The notes beneath the pieces are model-generated. The model worked only from the letters and a program-made list of their open reading frames with translations, ran no database searches and was not told the origin of the DNA. Below are positions 11,531 through 62,798 of a stretch of DNA of 64,000 nucleotides, piece by piece (position 1 is the first letter of the stretch; every line of letters starts with the position of its first letter). The position numbers were made by a program, and so were the translations under genes. Where the stretch lies: assembly GCA_036743175.1 (NCBI GenBank), contig DAINQB010000002.1:26757-90756 (forward strand), read 5' to 3'. This DNA is from Bacillota bacterium. Lineage in GTDB: Bacteria; Bacillota; Clostridia; DUPQ01.

Positions 11531-12697
11531 TCAGTATCTTCCATAGGTCCTGGCGGTTTCAACCATTGCATGGATATTCTCAAAGGGAGTATCCCTTCCG
11601 CACTGGTCTCCAGTTGAAAGTATGAATCTGCCTCCTTCGGCAGCGTCGTCAATTGCGGCTTTACAGGCATCAACAACCTGCTTTGTTGTCCCATGCAGCA
11701 TAATATCAGTGGTATGAAGATTTCCCTTCAGTACCAGCTCATGTCCAAATTCTCTTTTCAGATCCCTGAGATTACAGTCTCCCATCGGTGAGATTTCAAG
11801 AGGGTCTATTACTGTCAGATCGGTCTCCTCGGCACAAATCCTGACCAGCTCCTTTTCAGGACCGCATGAATGAACATGAGATGGGATGCCGTGATCCTTA
11901 CATAGTTTTGCAATATGCTTTACAATTGGAAGTCCCAGGTCCCTGAAGATTTCCGGAGTCTGGAATACAAGGGTTCCGCTTGCTCCTGTGCAGATGAAAT
12001 CCGGAGGTTCTTGAAGCTCCATCAGCCAATTGAATCTTTTTGTAAACAACTCGATTTTCCTATCCCTTAATTCCCTGTATTTATTTGGATTATCATAATA
12101 CTCATATATCTGCGAAGGATTTCCAAGCAAGGCGGATGTACCACAGAAAACTCCAACCAAGCCCTGGATGCCCATTTTTCTCTTAACTGCTGCAAGAAGC
12201 TCAGCGCTTCTGTACTCTTTTTTAACATCATGGATTCTTATGGGATTAACGGGAGTCCGGGAAAGACCTATGGATTCAGGATCAAGCCTGTGTGTCGGTG
12301 GGTTGTCCCTGTAATATACTGTGACGGTATCTTCCCATGCCCTATTGTGAGTTTTGGACCTGCTAAGGTCATATCTCTGGGTTACTATTCTCTCATCATT
12401 TTGGAAAACTATCATCTCTTCCATGTTGTCTTCATATTCATCATGCATACGGACCGGAGCATACCCGTCCATAAGGGAATCAATGTCAAAATACTTTGCA
12501 GCATCAATATATGCCATATATATCGGGGGATCCTTGTAAAGATACAGCTGCCAGAAGGGTTTGCCTGTCAGCTTTGCAGGAATCATGTTTGATATGTCCG
12601 GAGCAACAGGAACACAGTCGGGAATACTACCAACAAGCGTAATTTCCAGTCTTTTCCTTGAATTCATTCTGTCCATATCCGTTAACCTCTGTTCCAT
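11531..12697 (-). CDS. uroporphyrinogen decarboxylase (URO-D) family protein, MtaA/CmuA-like methyltransferase fold
   Basis: The 388-aa protein has a URO-D-like TIM-barrel signature. It is paralogous to 49386-50420 and 61530-62675. Confidence 0.65.
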   Translation of the reverse strand: MEQRLTDMDRMNSRKRLEITLVGSIPDCVPVAPDISNMIPAKLTGKPFWQLYLYKDPPIYMAYIDAAKYFDIDSLMDGYAPVRMHDEYEDNMEEMIVFQNDERIVTQRYDLSRSKTHNRAWEDTVTVYYRDNPPTHRLDPESIGLSRTPVNPIRIHDVKKEYRSAELLAAVKRKMGIQGLVGVFCGTSALLGNPSQIYEYYDNPNKYRELRDRKIELFTKRFNWLMELQEPPDFICTGASGTLVFQTPEIFRDLGLPIVKHIAKLCKDHGIPSHVHSCGPEKELVRICAEETDLTVIDPLEISPMGDCNLRDLKREFGHELVLKGNLHTTDIMLHGTTKQVVDACKAAIDDAAEGGRFILSTGDQCGRDTPFENIHAMVETARTYGRY

Positions 12698-12833
12698 TAT
12701 ATATACTTTTCCACAAACATATGTGGATATCCATGTAAATCCTGTGCAAAGATTCGTCTCAAAACATTAAATACTGCATTTTATGTGGAAAACCTGTTTG
12801 TATCCTTGTATATCCTGTTCACATCAAATAATC

Positions 12834-12894
12834 ACCTGTCAGGAAAATATTTTCCTGACAGGTAGATATTTTCCTGACAGGTAGATATTTTCTT
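12834..12894. repeat. palindrome/tandem array, copy a: a 30-bp perfect palindrome followed by three 19-bp-period units of the AGGAAAATATTTTCCT family
   Basis: Positions 12834-12863 form the perfect palindrome CCTGTCAGGAAAATATTTTCCTGACAGG. Three 16-bp units lie at 12841, 12860 and 12879: AGGAAAATATTTTCCT, AGGTAGATATTTTCCT and AGGTAGATATTTTCTT. Confidence 0.8.
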
Positions 12895-12898
12895 TTCA

Positions 12899-12926
12899 TG
12901 AAAAAAGAGCCCCGGTACCGGGGCCC
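12899..12926 (-). terminator. intrinsic terminator of the carbamate kinase gene
   Basis: A 16-bp GC palindrome (GCCCCGGTACCGGGGC, 12909-12924) is followed on the minus strand by TTTTTT. Confidence 0.7.
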
Positions 12927-12941
12927 CATGATTGCTATAAG

Positions 12942-25553: not shown

Positions 25554-26816
25554 TCAGCTCCTGTTCAATCTGTCCCACAGTTTACCTGCGGTTTTTACTG
25601 CTTTTACAATTTCCTCGTTTGCAACGGTGCTGCAAATACAGTTCTCAACAATCCTCTTTCCGTTCTTCCATACATCTGCCGGTTTGAGGCTGCCGGACAA
25701 TCCAAAAAGGATATGCCCGAATGCATTGCTTTCATCCATTGGTGAAATGGGTTCATAGCAGACCTTGATGATATCTGCATCATAACCTTCCTTTATACGC
25801 CCAATTTTCAATCCCATATATTCATTCATATACTTATAATTTTCATTCACCAATTCAAGAAGTCCGCCAAGACCGAAGGCAACAGGGGAACTGTACTTAT
25901 GTTTCATTGCCAGCAGCAGGCTCATCCATTCAGATGCTATTCCCATCGACATGCCGTCATTTCCTATAAGACACCGGACATTATGCTTTTTCAACATTCT
26001 GACATCAGGCAGTCCGACAGCATTGTTCATGTTTGACTGAATGTTGAGTGCCACATAACATTGGTTCTTCGCTATAAGGTCTGCTTCATCCTCATTTATG
26101 TGTATGCAGTGGGATAGAATCGATCCCTTGTTCAGAAGTCCGAAATCATAAAGCCTTTGGACAACTCTCATGCCGTGATAATCCATGCAGCTTTCCTGGT
26201 CAAGCCAGCTTTCCGCTGCATGTATATGAATGGGTCTGTTTCCAAGCACCTTCTTCACTTTTTCAAGGGTTTCATCCGAAAGGGACATTGAAGCATGAAG
26301 TCCGAACATATCACCGTTTTCAAGGTTTTCGGCAATGCAGTCATCAATATCAAACCGGTCGCTGGTCTCAAAACAAAGTGAACCCGTAAGTCCCGCCTTT
26401 TCAAATGCAGATTTTATCAATCCAAGTGAGCCCCTGATGTATCCGCTGGCATGATGGTCAATTACAGTGGTAACCCCGTTCAATAAGTACTCACGGGCAG
26501 CCGTCAGTGCGCTGTAATAAATATCATCCTTTTCAAGATGCGAATCTATCTTCCACCAAAGCTGGTCAAGCAGTTCCTGGAAGTTTGCAGGGTTGAACGG
26601 AAGGGCCAGTCCCCGTGAAAAGGTTGAATAGATGTGTGTATGGGCTACGGTAAGACCGGGCATGACCAGCGCTCCCCGGCAATCAGTTATATCGTATCCT
26701 TTGTCCCTGAAGGTCTTCATGTCCCCGACCATTTCTATTTTTTCATCAAATACAACAAAACCATTTTCAATATAGTTTTCAAAGTCATATATCCTTGCAT
26801 TTGTCAGAGCAAACAT
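25554..26816 (-). CDS. ssnA: SsnA-like amidohydrolase (chlorohydrolase/aminohydrolase family)
   Basis: An amidohydrolase fold with an HxH motif (TVAHTHIYS). It occupies the conserved position of ssnA in purine-catabolic clusters. Confidence 0.7.
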   Translation of the reverse strand: MFALTNARIYDFENYIENGFVVFDEKIEMVGDMKTFRDKGYDITDCRGALVMPGLTVAHTHIYSTFSRGLALPFNPANFQELLDQLWWKIDSHLEKDDIYYSALTAAREYLLNGVTTVIDHHASGYIRGSLGLIKSAFEKAGLTGSLCFETSDRFDIDDCIAENLENGDMFGLHASMSLSDETLEKVKKVLGNRPIHIHAAESWLDQESCMDYHGMRVVQRLYDFGLLNKGSILSHCIHINEDEADLIAKNQCYVALNIQSNMNNAVGLPDVRMLKKHNVRCLIGNDGMSMGIASEWMSLLLAMKHKYSSPVAFGLGGLLELVNENYKYMNEYMGLKIGRIKEGYDADIIKVCYEPISPMDESNAFGHILFGLSGSLKPADVWKNGKRIVENCICSTVANEEIVKAVKTAGKLWDRLNRS

Positions 26817-48708: not shown

Positions 48709-49392
48709 ATGACTCTGACAATAATCTCCCTTGCATTGATTCCGGTAATAATCCTGGTTGTTATGCTTGTCTATACTGACAGGCATAACAGGGAACCTGC
48801 AGGCCTCCTTGCGAAGGTTTTCTTATTTGGTCTGCTTGCCTCCGTTCCTGTCCTGATCATACAGGTAATACTGAACTCCGTAAGTGCTGCCACAGGTATA
48901 TACGGGATTATATTCCAGTCATTCATTGTTGCCGGACTCACGGAAGAATTTATGAAGAGGCAGGTTGTCCTGAGATTTGCATTCAGGAATCCTGCCTTTG
49001 ATGAGAAGCTTGATGGAATCATCTACTGTGCGTTTGCTGCACTTGGTTTCGCAGCGATAGAAAATGTACTTTATCTTTTCAGCTATTACCCGACCACACC
49101 TTCCGTTGCACTTTACAGGGCGGCATTTTCCGTTCCTGCGCATATGCTTTTCGGTATTACGATGGGATACTATCTTTCTCTTTCGAAATATTGCAATAAT
49201 CCGGTTCTGTGCAGAAAATACTTCAACCGCTCCCTTGTATATCCGGTCCTGATGCATGGGACTTTCAATTTTCTGCTCAGCATTAATCTGCCAATGCTAC
49301 TGGCCTTTGTCCCATTCGTCATTTTCCTATGGATATACAATATGAAAAAACTCAACAGATTCTATAAAGAATCAAGGGAGATGAGTCAGTAG
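48709..49392 (+). CDS. prsW: PrsW family intramembrane metalloprotease
   Basis: The EExxK (TEEFMKR), FxxxH and HxxxN (HGTFN) motifs are present across multiple TM helices. Confidence 0.8.
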   Translation: MTLTIISLALIPVIILVVMLVYTDRHNREPAGLLAKVFLFGLLASVPVLIIQVILNSVSAATGIYGIIFQSFIVAGLTEEFMKRQVVLRFAFRNPAFDEKLDGIIYCAFAALGFAAIENVLYLFSYYPTTPSVALYRAAFSVPAHMLFGITMGYYLSLSKYCNNPVLCRKYFNRSLVYPVLMHGTFNFLLSINLPMLLAFVPFVIFLWIYNMKKLNRFYKESREMSQ

Positions 49393-50420
49393 GCAGCCGC
49401 AATCATTGCCATGTAATTTTCAAAGGGAACATATTCAGGGATACTGTTTCCTGAACCCAGTGCATATCCCTTTGGAGATGATTCAACCATCCTCCTGCTT
49501 CTTTCATGTACCTCGTCGGGTGTCGCCCTGCAGACGAAGTCGAGGTCTATGCCCCCAAGAACTGAAATTCTGTTCTTATACTTGGGGTAAAATTTCTCAA
49601 CAGGCATTATATTGTCTTCATATGAATGTTTTGCATCATATCCTACATTGATTATGTCATCCATCAGGTTCTCGAGATTGCCGCAGGAATGAAGTATAGC
49701 AGGTTTTCCCGCTTCATGGATTACTTTTACTATTTCCCTGTGCCAGGGTATTACAAATTTTCTCATGTGTTCAAGCGACATCATCGGCTGAGTGTTGAAT
49801 CCCCAGTCATCATTTGAGATTACTGCGGCAACATCCTCTCTGGGAGAAACAATCCTATAATAGTCCACAAGGGTTTGTCCGACTTTTTCAAATATATCAT
49901 GTACCAGGGTTTCATCATCGTAGACTGCATAGCAGAGGTTGTCGTAACCCATCAGTGATATTACATTTTCCAATACCCCTCCGGGTCCATAGGGTATTAT
50001 CTTCATTCCGGCCGGCAGTCTCTGTCCGACATAATCAAGTCTTCCATAGTCAAAGCCACCGGCCACCGGCCAGTTGAATGCATCAAATGAATTCCTGTCC
50101 TTTACAACAACCGCATCATTGAGTGATTTGGTCTTGATGCTGTGGGGATCGTTTGGATTGAATACCAAATCACAGGCCAGGATGGTTATATAGTCATAGC
50201 CTGCGGTTTCATAGGCCAGGGTTCTTTCCATATAGTATTCATTGATATCATTGAACTGCAACCGGTCTTTCTGAAGCAGGAATGCATACAGGGGGTCGTT
50301 CAAAAAGAACTCAAAGAGAGTTGGTCTTGACAGCGCACCTCCTTCAAGAACCTTAAGGAGGTTCCTGTAATCCGGTCTTCTGTTTATTCTTCTGACATCA
50401 TATTTCATAAATGAATACAA
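49386..50420 (-). CDS. uroporphyrinogen decarboxylase (URO-D) family protein
   Basis: A URO-D-like TIM-barrel protein of 344 aa. It is the second paralogue in the window. Confidence 0.65.
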   Translation of the reverse strand: MYSFMKYDVRRINRRPDYRNLLKVLEGGALSRPTLFEFFLNDPLYAFLLQKDRLQFNDINEYYMERTLAYETAGYDYITILACDLVFNPNDPHSIKTKSLNDAVVVKDRNSFDAFNWPVAGGFDYGRLDYVGQRLPAGMKIIPYGPGGVLENVISLMGYDNLCYAVYDDETLVHDIFEKVGQTLVDYYRIVSPREDVAAVISNDDWGFNTQPMMSLEHMRKFVIPWHREIVKVIHEAGKPAILHSCGNLENLMDDIINVGYDAKHSYEDNIMPVEKFYPKYKNRISVLGGIDLDFVCRATPDEVHERSRRMVESSPKGYALGSGNSIPEYVPFENYMAMIAAAY

Positions 50421-53152: not shown

Positions 53153-53193
53153 GATTCCTCCACCTTGTTCCCTTTATGTGCTGTGTATAGTAA

Positions 53194-53221
53194 ATTGTAT
53201 CACCGGCAGTACATAAGTCAA
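53194..53221 (-). promoter_or_regulatory. sigma70-like promoter (TTGACT-N16-TACAAT) for nrdJ
   Basis: Read on the minus strand: TTGACT at 53221-53216 and TACAAT at 53199-53194. The UTR is about 35 nt. Confidence 0.5.
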
Positions 53222-53237
53222 ATTTATCTACCATCCT

Positions 53238-53286
53238 AATAATTACCTGTCAGGAAAATATTTTCCTGACAGGTAATTATTTAGTC
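53238..53286. repeat. palindrome/tandem array, copy b: a 44-bp perfect palindrome centred on AGGAAAATATTTTCCT plus one degenerate 19-bp-period unit
   Basis: Positions 53238-53281 form the perfect palindrome AATAATTACCTGTCAGGAAAATATTTTCCTGACAGGTAATTATT. A degenerate unit AGGTAATTATTTAGTC lies at 53271. Confidence 0.8.
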
Positions 53287-53289
53287 GGG

Positions 53290-53323
53290 TAAAAAAGGAT
53301 GCCGGTTCTATATTCCGGCATCC
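53290..53323 (-). terminator. intrinsic terminator of the secreted-protein gene
   Basis: A GGATGCCGG...CCGGCATCC hairpin is followed by TTTTTT on the minus strand. Confidence 0.7.
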
Positions 53324-56146: not shown

Positions 56147-58048
56147 TCATAGAACAGGCTTCTTGCTTCTGATGACTTCCCTCACATTATCTTCATACTG
56201 ACAGTAAAGCCTTCCCTTTTGATCAAATTCAAGGAGATTGACCAGTTTTTCCTCCAGCTGTTCGAATATCATTTCATCGGGGTCAAAACTGAACAGCTTA
56301 TTGGCTGTGACTATATAATACAGCCTGCCCGGACCTTTTCTTATAAACGAGACTTCCCATTTATAATCCTTTGACCTATTGAACTCAGCTAGTTTTTTCG
56401 TATATTCAACCGCTCCGGTTTGACTGTCCATTATGAAGAATGTGCTGTCTGCACAACCAAGCATCCTGCCGTCAGGCATCATGCAAAGTCCCCCTGCATT
56501 CTTGCAGCCCCTGACAGGCTCAACTTCGTAAATATATCTGTCATTTACTGTGTCAAAGGCAAAGACCGTACCGCTTTCATGCTTTGTATAACTGCCCAGT
56601 CCACCGCATACGGTTGTACCTCCGTAAAGAATTCCATCTTTGAATTCAAAGGAAACGATGCTTCTGGAATCCGAAAAGTCCTTTCTTACTGTATGTTCCT
56701 CACTGTTGATATCATAAACGGTAAGGGCTCCCTGCACATCCCCATAGTTGGGAATTGTTCCGATGTACAGTTTTTCATCGAAGACCTTCAGTGCAAAGGG
56801 CCTGTCCTGGTTTGCAGAGGTTTTCAAGTTGAATAGTTCCCTGGGATTACCCGGCATATCCCATGGTTCAGCGGGATCAAATTCATATATATATGCTCCG
56901 GGATATTTGCCGAAGTATACTTTTCCACAACCCGATGTTATGCCCTCACTCTGTCCGACTCCGTCATATTGGACTCCCGTATCAGTCTCAGGGTCATAGA
57001 TACAGATTCCACCACGAAGATATCCGCTGGCGTATATTTTACCTGACTCATGAAGATGAAGCTGTCGGATTTCGATTGATTTCCTCGGGATCTCAACATC
57101 AATAACTGATTTTTCATCAGTCCTTGAATTGTAAAGGTATATATAGCCTTCGAAACTGCTCACAAGTATAGATTCACCATCTGAATAAGGCCATATCCCC
57201 ATTATCACATCATCAAGATTGCTTATGAAATGATAAATTTGACGGTTTTCAGGGTCCACGGCATATCCGCCGTTCCTGCTTCCAATGATGAGCCTGTTCA
57301 GGTCAACACCCTTCGGAAGTATTTCCTCATGCTCACCAGGACATTTTATCCTGTCAACGATTTCACCGCTGTCCAGGTCAATGGCAATCATTTCCGATGA
57401 AAGGGACATATACGTATAAAGGGAATTATCGTGGAATCCAAATATTCTTGCAAAAGGCTCACGGCTGTATTCCAAAGGGAATATGTCTTTTACCGGACCT
57501 TCACCCTCCCTGTATTCAATTATATGACTATGGGATGATATGCTGGTATAGATGCTTTTACGCTCACGGTTATAAAGGACCAGCCTGACATAGTCTTCAG
57601 TCGGAACAATCTTTTCATCATAAAAGTCCAGACATTCATTGTTACCATTGTATTTGAATACAGCACAGTTGGGCCATGTGCCACCATAGACATTGTTTTC
57701 ATCATCTGCATCCAGGCTGAATATGAACTTTGCATTGGGCATGCTTTCAAAAAGGGTTTCGATTTTCTCTTCTACCGGGTTGAATCTATACAGCCCGCCA
57801 TTGACATAAGATCCAAAATAAATCCTGCCGTCGCTGGCTTCGCAGACACCCCATGATCCCGTAGCTCCAGGAGCATCCCCCCTGAACAGAATCTCTTTTC
57901 TATCCAGGCTTATGACCACGAAGGTCGCACACTCACCCTCAGCCAGAACACCATAGATTCTGTTATCACCCTTGTATACAGAATAACAGACTCCCTGCAT
58001 CAGGGTTTTCCTTACATTTACTGCCGTCTTTTCAAATTCAATCATCAC
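56147..58048 (-). CDS. beta-propeller repeat protein, hypothetical. It uses a GTG start.
   Basis: The 633-aa protein has recurring Y/W-rich blade-like segments (IYFGSY, VYGGTW, IYHF, LYIGT). It has a GGAAGGCGGAG RBS and a GTG/ATG start. Confidence 0.45.
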   Translation of the reverse strand: MMIEFEKTAVNVRKTLMQGVCYSVYKGDNRIYGVLAEGECATFVVISLDRKEILFRGDAPGATGSWGVCEASDGRIYFGSYVNGGLYRFNPVEEKIETLFESMPNAKFIFSLDADDENNVYGGTWPNCAVFKYNGNNECLDFYDEKIVPTEDYVRLVLYNRERKSIYTSISSHSHIIEYREGEGPVKDIFPLEYSREPFARIFGFHDNSLYTYMSLSSEMIAIDLDSGEIVDRIKCPGEHEEILPKGVDLNRLIIGSRNGGYAVDPENRQIYHFISNLDDVIMGIWPYSDGESILVSSFEGYIYLYNSRTDEKSVIDVEIPRKSIEIRQLHLHESGKIYASGYLRGGICIYDPETDTGVQYDGVGQSEGITSGCGKVYFGKYPGAYIYEFDPAEPWDMPGNPRELFNLKTSANQDRPFALKVFDEKLYIGTIPNYGDVQGALTVYDINSEEHTVRKDFSDSRSIVSFEFKDGILYGGTTVCGGLGSYTKHESGTVFAFDTVNDRYIYEVEPVRGCKNAGGLCMMPDGRMLGCADSTFFIMDSQTGAVEYTKKLAEFNRSKDYKWEVSFIRKGPGRLYYIVTANKLFSFDPDEMIFEQLEEKLVNLLEFDQKGRLYCQYEDNVREVIRSKKPVL

Positions 58049-58066
58049 TCCGCCTTCCGATAATCA

Positions 58067-58126
58067 CCTCTCAGGAAAATATTTTCCTGAGAGGAGAATA
58101 TTTTCCTCTGAGGTGAATATTCTCCT
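58067..58126. repeat. palindrome/tandem array, copy c: a 28-bp perfect palindrome followed by three 19-bp-period units
   Basis: Positions 58067-58094 form the perfect palindrome CCTCTCAGGAAAATATTTTCCTGAGAGG. Units lie at 58073, 58092 and 58111: AGGAAAATATTTTCCT, AGGAGAATATTTTCCT and AGGTGAATATTCTCCT. Confidence 0.8.
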
Positions 58127-58143
58127 CTGATGTAATTATTCCG

Positions 58144-58171
58144 AAAAAAACAACCCCGGTTTCCCGGGGTT
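58144..58171 (-). terminator. intrinsic terminator of kdgK
   Basis: A CCCCGG-TTTC-CCGGGG hairpin is followed by TTGTTTTTTT on the minus strand. Confidence 0.7.
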
Positions 58172-58175
58172 CTGG

Positions 58176-59204
58176 TTATCGCTGTACTCGTCCGGAACCG
58201 TCTCCGCCCATCAGGCTTACTACATCCTTGACGGATACCCTGTTGAAGTCCCCCGAAATAGTATGCTTCAGGCAGCTGGCTGCCACTGCAAACTCAAGGG
58301 CATCCTGAGGATCTTCATATTTTCTCAATCCGTAGATCAATCCACCGGCAAATGAATCACCACCGCCGACACGGTCTATGATATGGGTCATATCGTACTT
58401 CTTGCTGAGATAGAACTTTTTACCGTCGTTCAGACAAGCACTCCAGCCGTTGTGATCTGCACTCTTGCTTTCCCTCAGGGTTATTGCCATGTACTTAAGT
58501 GACGGATATTCCGCCATGACCTTATTGGAAAGAGCCTTATACTTTGAAGTATCAAGATGTCCGCCTTCTACATCAGCATCAATGCTTATACCGAGTGATT
58601 TCTGACAATCCTCCTCATTTGCAATGCCAACATTCACATATTTAACAAGTTCAGGCATCACTTCAGTGGCTTTTTTCCCATACTTCCAGAGTTTGTTCCT
58701 GAAGTTGAAATCACAGGATATGGTAATGCCTTTGTCAGCTGCTGCTTTTACAGACTCAAATGCCAGCTGTCTTGCAGAATCGCTTATTGCAGGCGTAATA
58801 CCCGTGATATGGAACCAGTCAACTCCATCGAAGACTTCATCCCAGTCTATGTCACCTGGTTTTGCAAGTGAAACAGCTGAATACGAACGGTCATATATTA
58901 CCTTGGAAGGCCTTTGTACAGAACCTGCCTCAAGATAATATATCCCGAGCCTGCCTTCGCCTGTTTTTATAAGTGAAACATCAACTCCAAAGCTCCGAAG
59001 CTCCCTTTTGCAGGCGTCCGCTATCTCATTGTCCGGCATGACCGTTACAAATGCCGCATCCATGCCAAAGTTTGCAAGGGAAACTGCCACATTGGCTTCT
59101 CCGCCGCCGAATGTCGCCTCAAACTTGGCACTTTGGAAGAATTTCTCTCTTTCCGGTGCCTTGAGCCTAAGCATTATCTCTCCGAAAGTCACCACTTTTT
59201 TCAT
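58176..59204 (-). CDS. kdgK: 2-dehydro-3-deoxygluconokinase (PfkB family sugar kinase)
   Basis: The PfkB signatures GGGEANVA and [12 protein letters not shown] are present. It is adjacent to the KDPG aldolase gene. Confidence 0.85.
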
Positions 59205-61529: not shown

Positions 61530-62675
61530 CTATTTTTGTGTCAACTTCTTCCATTCATCCACAAGTGCCAGTGTATTCTTCCAGTTGAAGTGCTGCCTGA
61601 TGCTGTTTGTAACCCCAAGGACAAAACGCTTCCCCTGGAATACCTCCATTGCATCCCTTACGGCCTTTCTTGTACTATCCTCATTGTCTGAGGCAAGGCA
61701 CACCGGACTGCTGACCCCTGTCCATATCGCTGAAATATCTGAAAGTCCTTCCATGACATCCAGGTTTGAACAGTTTGAAAGTTCAGGTTCAAAACCCTCA
61801 ACTATATCGAATCCGATTTCTGCAATATCACAAAGCAATGGCTTCATTCCAGTCACTACCCTATAGTACATGGGTCTTTTAAATTCCCTTGCCTTTGCCA
61901 CTTCCCTCCTGGCAAACGGTGAAACCACATCCCTGTATATTGACGGTGAAAAGAAATTTGTCTGTTCATAACCACCAAACCTCTTGAACAAGTCTATGTC
62001 GTAATAGTCTGCAATCCTCATTCTTTCCTGGGTCATTTCATGTTCATATTCAGCAAGCATTGCAAATTCTTCGGGATAATCCATCGCAAACAGTACAAAG
62101 TTTTCCGCTCCCATGCAAAACATCAGGACGGCAAGGCCCTGTCCGACCGTCGCCCTTGTAAGCACCTGGTATCTGTCAGCAATATCAAAAAGCCTTCTGT
62201 TCTGCTTTTTTACCTTCTCAATATCATCCGTTGAAGGCGGATACCAGAGATATTTGAATGCCTTTATATCTTCAGGCCCCTTTACCAGTGGTTCATAATT
62301 GTTGCTCGCACAGTGATCATTTCCGGGGAACGGTATATCATCCCCATAAGGCCAGTCATGTGTTCTTCGAACCCCCTGACGTAAAATTCCTTCCGGAGTA
62401 ATGTATTCCTTGAAAATCACCGGATACTTTTCACCCTCGACTTCTTCGGTCCACACCCTGGTTCTTACATCAGGCCAGGTGCCAAAATCAGGCAAAGCTA
62501 TATCAATGACGGGTTCCGTACCAAGGTCCAGATAACACCTTACCCTGTCCTCAGGGTCAGAAAGATTGTAACCCTCTACTCGCAGAGCATTGTTGAAATA
62601 TATGCTGCATGGAACATAGTCCTTTTCTTTTCCGGAAAAAGCCGCGAGCATTCTTTCCTTTGATGTCATCCTCAT
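61530..62675 (-). CDS. uroporphyrinogen decarboxylase (URO-D) family protein
   Basis: The third URO-D-like paralogue. The start was chosen at MRMTSKERMLAAF, which has an AAAGGGG RBS. Confidence 0.65.
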   Translation of the reverse strand: MRMTSKERMLAAFSGKEKDYVPCSIYFNNALRVEGYNLSDPEDRVRCYLDLGTEPVIDIALPDFGTWPDVRTRVWTEEVEGEKYPVIFKEYITPEGILRQGVRRTHDWPYGDDIPFPGNDHCASNNYEPLVKGPEDIKAFKYLWYPPSTDDIEKVKKQNRRLFDIADRYQVLTRATVGQGLAVLMFCMGAENFVLFAMDYPEEFAMLAEYEHEMTQERMRIADYYDIDLFKRFGGYEQTNFFSPSIYRDVVSPFARREVAKAREFKRPMYYRVVTGMKPLLCDIAEIGFDIVEGFEPELSNCSNLDVMEGLSDISAIWTGVSSPVCLASDNEDSTRKAVRDAMEVFQGKRFVLGVTNSIRQHFNWKNTLALVDEWKKLTQK

Positions 62676-62798
62676 TGTTGTCCCCTTTCTATGCAATACA
62701 TTTTACACCAACAGGATGTTTCTGTATCGATGATTACAAATCAAATTCTTGATTTTCCTGATTGATATGATAAAATAAGAACATATGTTCGGTGTATT

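Follow-up and report, generated by a model that had tools for sequence, protein, structure and literature searches.

An array of short palindromic repeats, designated array c, fills the spacer between a PfkB-family (kdgK-like) kinase gene and a beta-propeller gene in an uncultured member of the Clostridia. It is one of three related arrays (a, b and c) in the 64,000-nucleotide stretch of DNA analysed here (positions 26,757 to 90,756 of contig DAINQB010000002.1, assembly GCA_036743175.1), which is referred to as the window and numbered from its first base. The genes on either side of array c are on the minus strand, with the kinase gene at 58176-59204 and its stop codon separated by 127 nt from the start of the beta-propeller gene, which encodes a product of 632-633 amino acids. 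Read along the minus strand, the spacer consists of the intrinsic terminator of the kinase gene (58145-58171; AACCCCGGGAAACCGGGGTT followed by a T-run, with the part before the T-run at 58171-58152), the array (58141-58060), and the minus-strand start region of the beta-propeller gene (58043-58058) with its Shine-Dalgarno sequence GGAAGG (58058-58053). The array begins about 3 nt past the 8-nt T-rich tail window used for scoring the terminator, and at its other end (58060) a single base separates it from the Shine-Dalgarno sequence. The ATG at 58045-58043 is the likely start codon and matches the 632-residue product of public assemblies. The beta-propeller gene heads an operon with an OmpR-type response regulator, a histidine kinase and a 219-residue protein, and the identical beta-propeller protein is encoded on contigs of several anaerobic-digester metagenomes and in one NCBI metagenome-assembled genome (MAG).

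Organisation of the three arrays

Array c (58060-58141; like the other arrays it is given no strand) is composed of four 19-bp units with AT-rich flanks at its ends (ATAATCA on the left and TAATTATT on the right), and Tandem Repeats Finder reports 3.9 copies with a period of 19 at 58067-58141. On the plus strand the four units are marked by the 9-mers CCTCTCAGG (58067-58075), CCTGAGAGG (58086-58094), CCTCTGAGG (58105-58113) and CCTCTGATG (58124-58132), with the intervening spacers aaaatatttt, agaatatttt and tgaatattct in that order; on the gene (minus) strand this amounts to three units in one direction and then one inverted. The first two 9-mers and the spacer between them form a head-to-head core (58067-58094), which reads CCTCTCAGGAAAATATTTTCCTGAGAGG on the plus strand and is a perfect 28-bp palindrome of the CTC/GAG sub-family described below. 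A preliminary description of this DNA had three units filling the spacer; the array does run from the kdgK terminator to the ribosome-binding site (RBS), but it has four units and extends over 58060-58141 rather than 58067-58126. That the array abuts the RBS and leaves no detectable conventional promoter is borne out, in that a scan for sigma-70-like promoters finds none between 57900 and 58400. By eye, a weak candidate (AGGAAA-17-GATTAT) overlaps the last unit.

Array b (53237-53282) is a minimal two-unit element of the GTC/GAC sub-family, forming a near-perfect palindrome of ~46 bp. It lies between a terminator-like hairpin with a T-run (53291-53323, minus strand), seen by eye after the 219-residue gene and just upstream of the array, and the promoter of nrdJ (53194-53221, minus strand; TTGACT-16-TACAAT with a TG extension), which was identified by the scan tool 16 nt downstream of the array. 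The hairpin is missed by the scan tool, whose loop limit of 8 nt is exceeded by its 9-nt loop. Array a (12826-12895) has three GTC/GAC units, with 9-mers at 12835, 12854 and 12873, and a degenerate fourth; it is located between a URO-D/MtaA-like gene and the intrinsic terminator of a carbamate-kinase-like gene directly upstream of it (12898-12927, minus strand; GGGGCCCCGGTACCGGGGCTCT then TTTTTT). These sequences stand out strongly from their background. The two-unit pattern has 12 matches in the window and 0.00 in 100 shuffles, and a 23-bp framework, ATAWTYAC-N7-GWRAWTAT, has 19 matches against 1.5 expected, 18 of them within arrays a, b and c.

A family of arrays built from one module

Metagenome contigs were scanned with a pattern in which CCT...AGG and the AT spacer are fixed and the three central bases are free, yielding 36 loci that correspond, after removal of duplicates, to 29 distinct arrays with 87 units in the window's organism. 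The DNA covered amounts to some 0.3 Mb of this organism, whose nrdJ product bears the NCBI label 'Clostridia bacterium'. Unit sequences are highly uniform, CCTCTCAGG being present 48 times and CCTGTCAGG being found in 23 copies. All arrays are assembled from a 23-bp unit in which a 7-bp G+C-rich core is enclosed by an AT-rich arm of 8 bp (ATAWTYAC) and its inverted counterpart (GWRAWTAT), and the 19-bp period arises because neighbouring units share the four bases ATAT. Units can be oriented as 5'-AT(T/C)(C/T)A CCTNNNAGG AAAAT-3', and all three types of junction occur: head-to-head with the spacer AAAATATTTT (joining AAAAT to ATTTT), tail-to-tail with TGAATATTCA (joining TGAAT to ATTCA), and head-to-tail, as in AAAATATCTA. 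The period is constantly 19 bp whatever the orientation of the units, and arrays span from two to six or more of them. An exact head-to-head junction is present in 27 of the 29 arrays and generates a palindrome of 28-48 bp; array b exemplifies the minimal element, whose palindrome is 44-48 bp and has the form (CG)AATAATTA-CCTSTCAGG-AAAATATTTT-CCTGASAGG-TAATTATT(CG). The ends of the arrays form terminal inverted repeats, (CG)AATAATYAC ... GTRATTATT(CG).

Several assemblies yield contigs that begin or end inside or at arrays (L012:1-41, L014:4974-5029, L027:1-119, L050:1-55 and L064:1-30, where L numbers denote loci), as is to be expected of multi-copy DNA. One locus is represented with differing numbers of units, six or more in L027 and five in L046, reflecting either copy-number polymorphism or assembly collapse.

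The cores are assigned to class 1 (CTGTCAG, CTCTCAG, CTCAGAG and CTCAGGG) or class 2 (ACCWGGT, CCCAGGT, CCCAGAC and GACTGTC). Class-2 units, such as the 31-bp palindrome AACGATAATTAC-ACCWGGT-GTAATTATCGTT, are each followed by a conserved linker of ~26 nt (roughly CGTWnGGTTAGAAATATAACATAACG) and have a period near 49 bp. They form an additional layer at six loci (L015:900-1060, L028:2077-2181, L013:7339-7380, L024:2285-2330, L025:3419-3441 and L044:1603-1625), at five of which they separate the 19-bp class-1 array from the terminator.

Two sub-families of the head-to-head core

The cores of array a (12835-12862) and array b (53246-53273) both read CCTGTCAGGAAAATATTTTCCTGACAGG, that is CCTGTCAGG...CCTGACAGG, and the core of array c differs from them in two bases only: position 4 of the left 9-mer is C instead of G, and position 6 of the right 9-mer is G instead of C. 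This paired change, on which the preliminary description based its proposal of selection on symmetry, is real and can be read directly by comparing 58067-58094 with the other two arrays. Across the family, 14 of the 27 exact head-to-head cores are CTC/GAG, the type of copy c, and 11 are GTC/GAC, the type of arrays a and b; two (L019 and L028) are mismatched, and none of the 27 is of a cross-type (GTC/GAG or CTC/GAC). Arms are matched in 25 of the 27 (Fisher p = 2e-7 with copies treated as independent). The covariation that had been suggested as a check is present at pair 14-35 of the head-to-head core alignment, where 14 of the 26 distinct sequences have CG and 11 have GC; the pair gives a score of 0.118 versus 0.080 in shuffles, equalled by 1 of 500 shuffles.

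A looser scoring of orientation gives concordant arms at 26 of 28 head-to-head junctions and at 19 of 26 head-to-tail junctions (p = 0.07); four junctions with the tail-to-tail spacer, which mostly join unlike units, were left out of the orientation classes. Immediately outside the core, the alternative flanks (ATAATTA/TAATTAT versus ATAATCA/TGATTAT) do not covary significantly, with T-A in 10, T-G in 7, C-G in 5 and C-A in 5. Rare flank variants are mirrored on both sides at L034 (AAACA/TGTTT) and L023 (AAATA/TATTT), a hint that a symmetrising process is still at work or that selection acts. On the gene strand, mismatches are equally divided between G-T (nine, G-U-compatible) and A-C (nine), and there is no strand-specific wobble signal.

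Symmetry is a property of the whole family and not of copy c alone, and the variant in copy c is the commoner of two sub-family alleles. Non-random symmetry is supported across the family, but the pair is not a compensation specific to copy c. One ancestral double change together with copying of the doublet is enough to explain the pair, and independent compensations are few; because such a single event could account for it, the pair argues only weakly for selection at the array c locus, and little is left of the idea that a compensatory change occurred specifically at this locus.

Genomic context of the arrays

None of the 29 arrays lies inside an open reading frame (ORF) of 80 residues or more. 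About 17 are between co-directional genes, four between convergent and two between divergent genes, with the rest at contig ends. At least 18 of the 29 begin 1-23 nt past the T-tail of a terminator pointing into the array, and by eye approximately 24 follow terminators once terminators with bulges or large loops, and composite arrays containing class-2 units, are counted as well. The flanking genes include nrdJ, the URO-D/MtaA-like gene, the beta-propeller and two-component-system operon, and genes for a Na/Pi-PhoU transporter, an ABC permease, an ammonium transporter, AcrB, BacA, a Bmp-family binding protein, an M32 carboxypeptidase, a TetR regulator, a PHP-domain protein and an OmpR-type regulator. 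These neighbours are functionally unrelated and reveal no regulon logic.

The nrdJ promoter is the only promoter beside an array that is confirmed by the scan tool, and it lies downstream of its array; sigma-70-like promoters seen by eye after other arrays are from ~17 to more than 60 nt away. With promoters downstream of the arrays, and with four arrays between convergent genes, the arrays are unlikely to be promoters themselves, and one of the options in the preliminary description, a promoter inside array c, loses its appeal. Nor is this the pattern of an operator regulon, as the gene set is incoherent, the distance to the promoter (by eye) is variable, and convergent spacers are occupied. 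Autoregulation by the OmpR-type regulator downstream of array c was considered and rejected, just two of the 29 arrays preceding such operons. Binding sites for NrdR (array b precedes nrdJ), ArgR, Fur/Zur/PerR, CodY, Rex, LexA, TnrA and BlaI/CopY were rejected likewise, there being no coherent regulon. The half-sites and spacing of these regulators do not appear to fit the arrays, which also show no evident match to the ARG, Fur, NrdR, CodY and Rex consensus sequences.

Two arrays appear by eye to lie beside tRNA genes (L030:7300-7400 and L036:6950-7050), one of them upstream of a TTGACA-17-TATAAT promoter apparently driving the tRNA and the other divergent from the tRNA gene. Base composition differs between the two sides of the arrays at the 29 loci, with G at 0.30 and C at 0.11 in the 40 nt past the gene-proximal ends (strand toward the gene) and G at 0.20 and C at 0.22 on the terminator side, a comparison of one array side with the other. 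G-runs follow the arrays at several loci, such as TTGGGGAAACGGGGGGGATTTTTGGGG at L018 and GGGTTTTGGGGTTTTAGG at L034.

Arrays in related species

Syntenic loci in related uncultured Clostridia were reached through homologues of the NrdJ and URO-D proteins. In a sister species (GCA_016929655.1, with a further assembly from run SRR13394437), whose NrdJ is 84% identical to that of the window, both of the testable sites, c and a, are occupied by arrays as in the window's organism. The sister array at site c (L049:2559-2715) has eight direct 19-bp units of the form AATATTTAC-GYCTGGG-GAA, with alternating GCC and GTC cores and a higher-order period of 56-57 bp. Its boundaries agree within 1-2 nt with those of array c, and both arrays fill the spacer from the T-run to the RBS. 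The sister array contains no head-to-head junction, no palindrome and no defined fold; as it is made of direct units only, a palindrome is dispensable here. For site a there is a contig from run SRR13394437, taken as belonging to the sister species, that starts inside an array ending ...ATATTTAC-GACAGGG-GTAATTAT. The 7-bp cores in the sister species (GYCTGGG or GACAGGG) differ from those in the window, and the two species have the AT-rich arms in common.

Gene order is also shared by five relatives at a greater distance (NrdJ 75-78% or URO-D 78% identical), which have no array in the ~22 kb inspected in each; the nrdJ promoter, compared by eye, is kept in five relatives lacking an array upstream of nrdJ. 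The kdgK/beta-propeller spacer of one such relative (L054:3405-3493) has no array, and carries between terminator and RBS a perfect inverted repeat, TTAACAAGTTATCCG-A-CGGATAACTTGTTAA, which is a candidate operator of the beta-propeller operon in that organism. The arrays are limited to a shallow clade, and their positions are stable in two species while cores, copy number and orientation turn over. Because arms and positions are stable while the rest turns over, the arrays are better described as a concertedly evolving repeat family than as conserved cis-regulatory sites.

Folding and searches for known elements

Folded as DNA, array c has a free energy of -19.9 kcal/mol (z = -7.3), the 42-nt single-stranded stretch containing its core (58060-58101) -12.9 kcal/mol (z = -6.5), and array b -19.8 kcal/mol (z = -11). 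The RNA of the 141-nt spacer, whose folding was among the checks put forward earlier, reaches -54.8 kcal/mol (z = -6.1), with the array as a single long stem extending to GGAAGG. The cores of arrays a and c are flagged as terminator-like by the scan tool because a T-rich flank follows the stem; this post-stem tail (TRATTATT) is interrupted by A, and genuine terminators already precede most arrays. Rfam 15 gives no match at gathering thresholds in the whole window, and relaxed filters around array c return sub-threshold, chance-level matches only (E of 0.04 or higher). For the RNA or DNA hairpin envisaged in the preliminary description, stable folds are predicted, and with no wobble signal and no Rfam match an RNA hairpin is not favoured over symmetry at the DNA level.

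The arrays are not a CRISPR array, as the units abut, overlap by 4 bp and have no unique spacers between them. A scan of a genome collection with the core gave three matches, all in other organisms: L001 and L002 are imperfect and in a non-repeat context, and L003, from a Ruminococcus MAG, consists of one hairpin with a T-run after it, for which a terminator matching by chance is the simplest explanation. Viral contigs contain no match to the core, and the generic two-unit pattern finds six loci there (four distinct sequences), within the ~2-3 chance matches of a hand estimate and providing no link to phages or plasmids. On a G+C-rich viral contig (L056:1236-1262, L058:67-93) two GAAAATATTCACC motifs lie 19 bp apart beside an apparent tRNA gene; they are probably unrelated to the family and are possibly arm-type sites of an integrase. 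An all-against-all BLAST of 327 ORFs from the array loci was used to look for a recurrent neighbour such as a transposase; those recurring families that were checked against Pfam are of housekeeping kinds, such as ABC ATPases, GGDEF proteins and histidine kinases. A literature search for the sequence strings of the family found no paper containing them, and the family appears to be undescribed so far.

Relationship to other interspersed repeats

In Escherichia coli and Salmonella, related species may hold bacterial interspersed mosaic elements (BIMEs) at the same intergenic sites with species-specific sequences. Repetitive extragenic palindromes (REPs) are palindromes of 20-40 bp with a GTAG or CGTC tag, often accompanied by a RAYT gene, and are arranged as head-to-head, tail-to-tail and head-to-tail dimers and in tandem clusters; the survey describing them contains no mention of Firmicutes (PMC3733652). 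In REPINs, an inverted doublet behaves as a unit and its arms stay complementary (PMC3116915, PMC3337134). The present family resembles the BIMEs of E. coli and the REPINs of Pseudomonas with their RAYT transposases in being made of short multi-copy extragenic palindromes (28-48 bp cores here), in having all three dimer types and tandem clusters, in comprising several sequence classes per genome, in its complementary doublet, and in occupying the same sites in two species with differing sequences. It differs in that there is no conserved tag, since among 82 oriented units the tail tetranucleotide GTGA is found in 34, GTAA in 28, GTAG in just 12 and CGTC in none; in that units abut without linkers on a strict 19-bp lattice, sharing 4 bp; in its AT-rich arms and G+C-rich 7-bp core; in its Firmicute host; and in that no RAYT gene (Y1, IS200/IS605-like) is seen in the ~0.3 Mb of DNA.

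The nearest analogues in Firmicutes are BOX and SPRITE. BOX modules are 45-59 nt long and not obviously related in sequence, and BOX elements are often transcribed within operons. The likeness of the arrays to them is one of architecture only: both are modular, interspersed intergenic repeats of Firmicutes with a variable number of tandem internal modules between complementary ends and with predicted stem-loops, and the mobiliser is uncertain for both. In contrast to BOX, a single 19-bp module is used here in either orientation and the arrays mostly follow terminators. In Streptococcus pneumoniae, BOX elements have the structure boxA-boxBn-boxC, a context-dependent effect on neighbouring genes and an uncertain mobilising enzyme, and SPRITE, another interspersed repeat, has a long perfect stem followed by a T-rich tract and is terminator-like (PMC3049150). 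The terminator-like cores of arrays a and c recall SPRITE, but the tail here is interrupted by A, many arrays have extra direct units and lie beside true terminators instead of replacing them, and there is no sequence relationship.

MITEs (miniature inverted-repeat transposable elements) such as Correia/NEMIS and RUP share the AT-rich ends, the terminal inverted repeats (CGAATAATTAC...GTAATTATTCG here), and a self-complementary, non-coding and multi-copy nature. However, the arrays are built wholly of repeated end-like modules and lack internal sequence, module number differs from locus to locus and, at one locus, apparently from sample to sample (L027 versus L046), and no insertion sequence with matching ends was found within the DNA seen. 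Operator and iteron arrays (plasmid iterons, tandem ARG boxes and overlapping Fur boxes) are likewise made up of 17-22 bp sites in tandem that have an AT-rich core and internal dyad symmetry and lie in front of genes, but here dozens of near-identical arrays lie by unrelated genes and also in convergent spacers, and their distance to promoters is not fixed.

Origin and possible roles of the arrays

We consider array c, with a probability of roughly 0.6, to be a copy of a lineage-specific, copy-propagated extragenic repeat family of the REP/BIME or BOX kind in an uncultured anaerobic-digester member of the Clostridia. The family has at least 29 copies and two core sub-families, is intergenic, terminator-adjacent and gene-independent, is confined to one clade, and has units that turn over; its arrays fill spare sequence that separates an intrinsic terminator from the next gene's control region. 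The near-identity of the units, cores included, points to a copied repeat family rather than to operators. The family would then have originated by copying and not by independent evolution of regulatory sites, with transposition-like spread or gene conversion keeping it uniform and slippage altering the number of units. The G to C and C to G pair would be what distinguishes the two sub-families of the head-to-head doublet, whose arms may stay complementary either because the doublet is the copied unit, as in REPINs, or because copying needs a single-strand hairpin. At the kdgK/beta-propeller spacer array c is most likely a passenger; since it has no recognisable promoter, expression of the beta-propeller operon probably depends on read-through past the kdgK terminator or on a weak promoter that overlaps the last unit. 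If transcribed, array c would place a strong stem-loop directly before the beta-propeller RBS.

Several points weigh against this interpretation. Among the Pfam-scanned neighbours, within the ~0.3 Mb of genome, there is no mobilising transposase, and the genome-wide copy number is extrapolated from that same amount of DNA. No consistent direct repeat flanks the arrays as a target-site duplication would, and a clean empty site is not definable, the array-free relatives being too diverged for exact junctions. The tag that is the hallmark of REPs is absent as a family feature, given that GTAG occurs in 12 of 82 units. The conservation of arms across two species while cores turn over could equally reflect a host DNA-binding protein. 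In co-directional spacers the arrays show, by eye, an orientation bias with respect to the downstream gene of ~8 against 2, and this bias and the tight placement after terminators hint at a function or targeting rule that copying as such leaves unspecified.

The arrays might instead be platforms on which an abundant DNA-binding protein of the host (a global repressor, a nucleoid-associated protein or an insulator, for example) occupies multiple sites, although we regard this as rather unlikely. A dimer would bind the palindromic AT-rich 12-mer (G-WRAATATTYW-C) or the TTAC-N7-GTAA arms and polymerise along the 19-bp lattice, blocking read-through of the upstream terminator or modulating the downstream promoter. 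Such a protein would suit the AT-rich arms shared by two species whose cores differ, the twofold symmetry of every spacer and many cores, the exact period in every orientation, and the position of arrays between terminators and promoters with the mild bias just noted. Against it, near-identical units with their cores are typical of copied DNA and not of independently selected operators, and uniformity would still need a copying process even with protein bound; the flanking genes lack functional coherence, promoters are (by eye) ~17 to >60 nt away, four arrays are in convergent spacers, relatives hold the same genes and nrdJ promoter without arrays, and no candidate regulator has been identified. 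Less probable still is an element acting in RNA, in which the hairpin of the head-to-head core would be a back-up bidirectional terminator or insulator, or a stem-loop in a 5' or 3' untranslated region that affects mRNA stability or masks the RBS. The stem of the spacer RNA up to GGAAGG, the terminator-like scores of two cores, and strict Watson-Crick symmetry, which on both strands would suit a bidirectional hairpin, are consistent with it, and SPRITE provides a precedent for a terminator-like repeat in the pneumococcus (PMC3049150). However, array b is probably untranscribed because it lies between a terminator and the nrdJ promoter, G-U-compatible mismatches on the gene strand are no commoner than A-C ones, the sister array at site c is purely direct with no stable fold, Rfam has no match at gathering thresholds, and the A-interrupted tract UAAUUAUU after the stem would make a weak U-tract.

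That array c itself carries the promoter of the beta-propeller operon is highly improbable. In its favour are the 1-2 nt between array and RBS, the lack of any other promoter found in the spacer, and the by-eye candidate overlapping the last unit, but the scan yields zero sigma-70-like sites, the 19-bp period puts hexamers resembling -35 and -10 elements out of register, promoters elsewhere are downstream of their arrays (one tool-confirmed, the others by eye), some arrays are present where no gene starts, and the sister species has a different unit at site c. A further possibility, which we hold as a quite tentative extension, is that a clade-specific protein, for example a recombinase, an HUH-type enzyme, or an insulator or nucleoid protein, binds the 19-bp lattice or processes it as its substrate. 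The AT-rich inverted arms would then be what is recognised and the 7-bp G+C core a class-defining spacer, and the protein would home arrays to sites downstream of intrinsic terminators and keep them uniform.

Other features of the window

The control region of the URO-D/MtaA-like gene downstream of array a (window 12698-12825; L064:30-170 and L062:9760-9990 in relatives) contains repeated AACAGGATAT(A/T)CA and TTTTCCACAG / CTGTGGAAAA motifs. Relatives keep these motifs whether or not they have the array, and the motifs are therefore probably operator sites belonging to the gene itself. Downstream of the conserved nrdJ promoter in relatives (L053:9930-10000, L054:9460-9526 and L055:9930-10000) the leader contains palindromes such as GCACAATATTTAGTGC and GCACTATATTTTGTGC, which resemble NrdR boxes; the nrdJ leader of the window (53153-53193) is shorter, and its box less clear. 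The window encodes three paralogous URO-D/MtaA-like genes (11531-12697, 49386-50420 and 61530-62696) as well as the B12-dependent nrdJ and an ECF/CbiQ transporter, a combination that suggests corrinoid-dependent methyl-transfer metabolism in this organism.

Implications

Interspersed palindromes are well studied in Proteobacteria (REP, BIME and REPIN-RAYT) and in streptococci (BOX, RUP and SPRITE), and little is known of them in Clostridia. The grammar of the present family is unusually regular, with one 19-bp module used in any orientation, arms kept while cores turn over, and a location mostly within ~20 nt of a terminator. The arrays break metagenome assemblies of this lineage, and they mimic operators and attenuators, such that recognition of the family prevents regulatory mis-annotation, for example of the beta-propeller operon. 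If a clade-specific protein does act on the lattice, it would represent a new terminator-anchored chromosomal repeat system in Firmicutes, distinct from REP-RAYT, and a dedicated protein or targeting rule would make these arrays a tractable case of repeats that home to terminators and persist at their sites despite sequence turnover.

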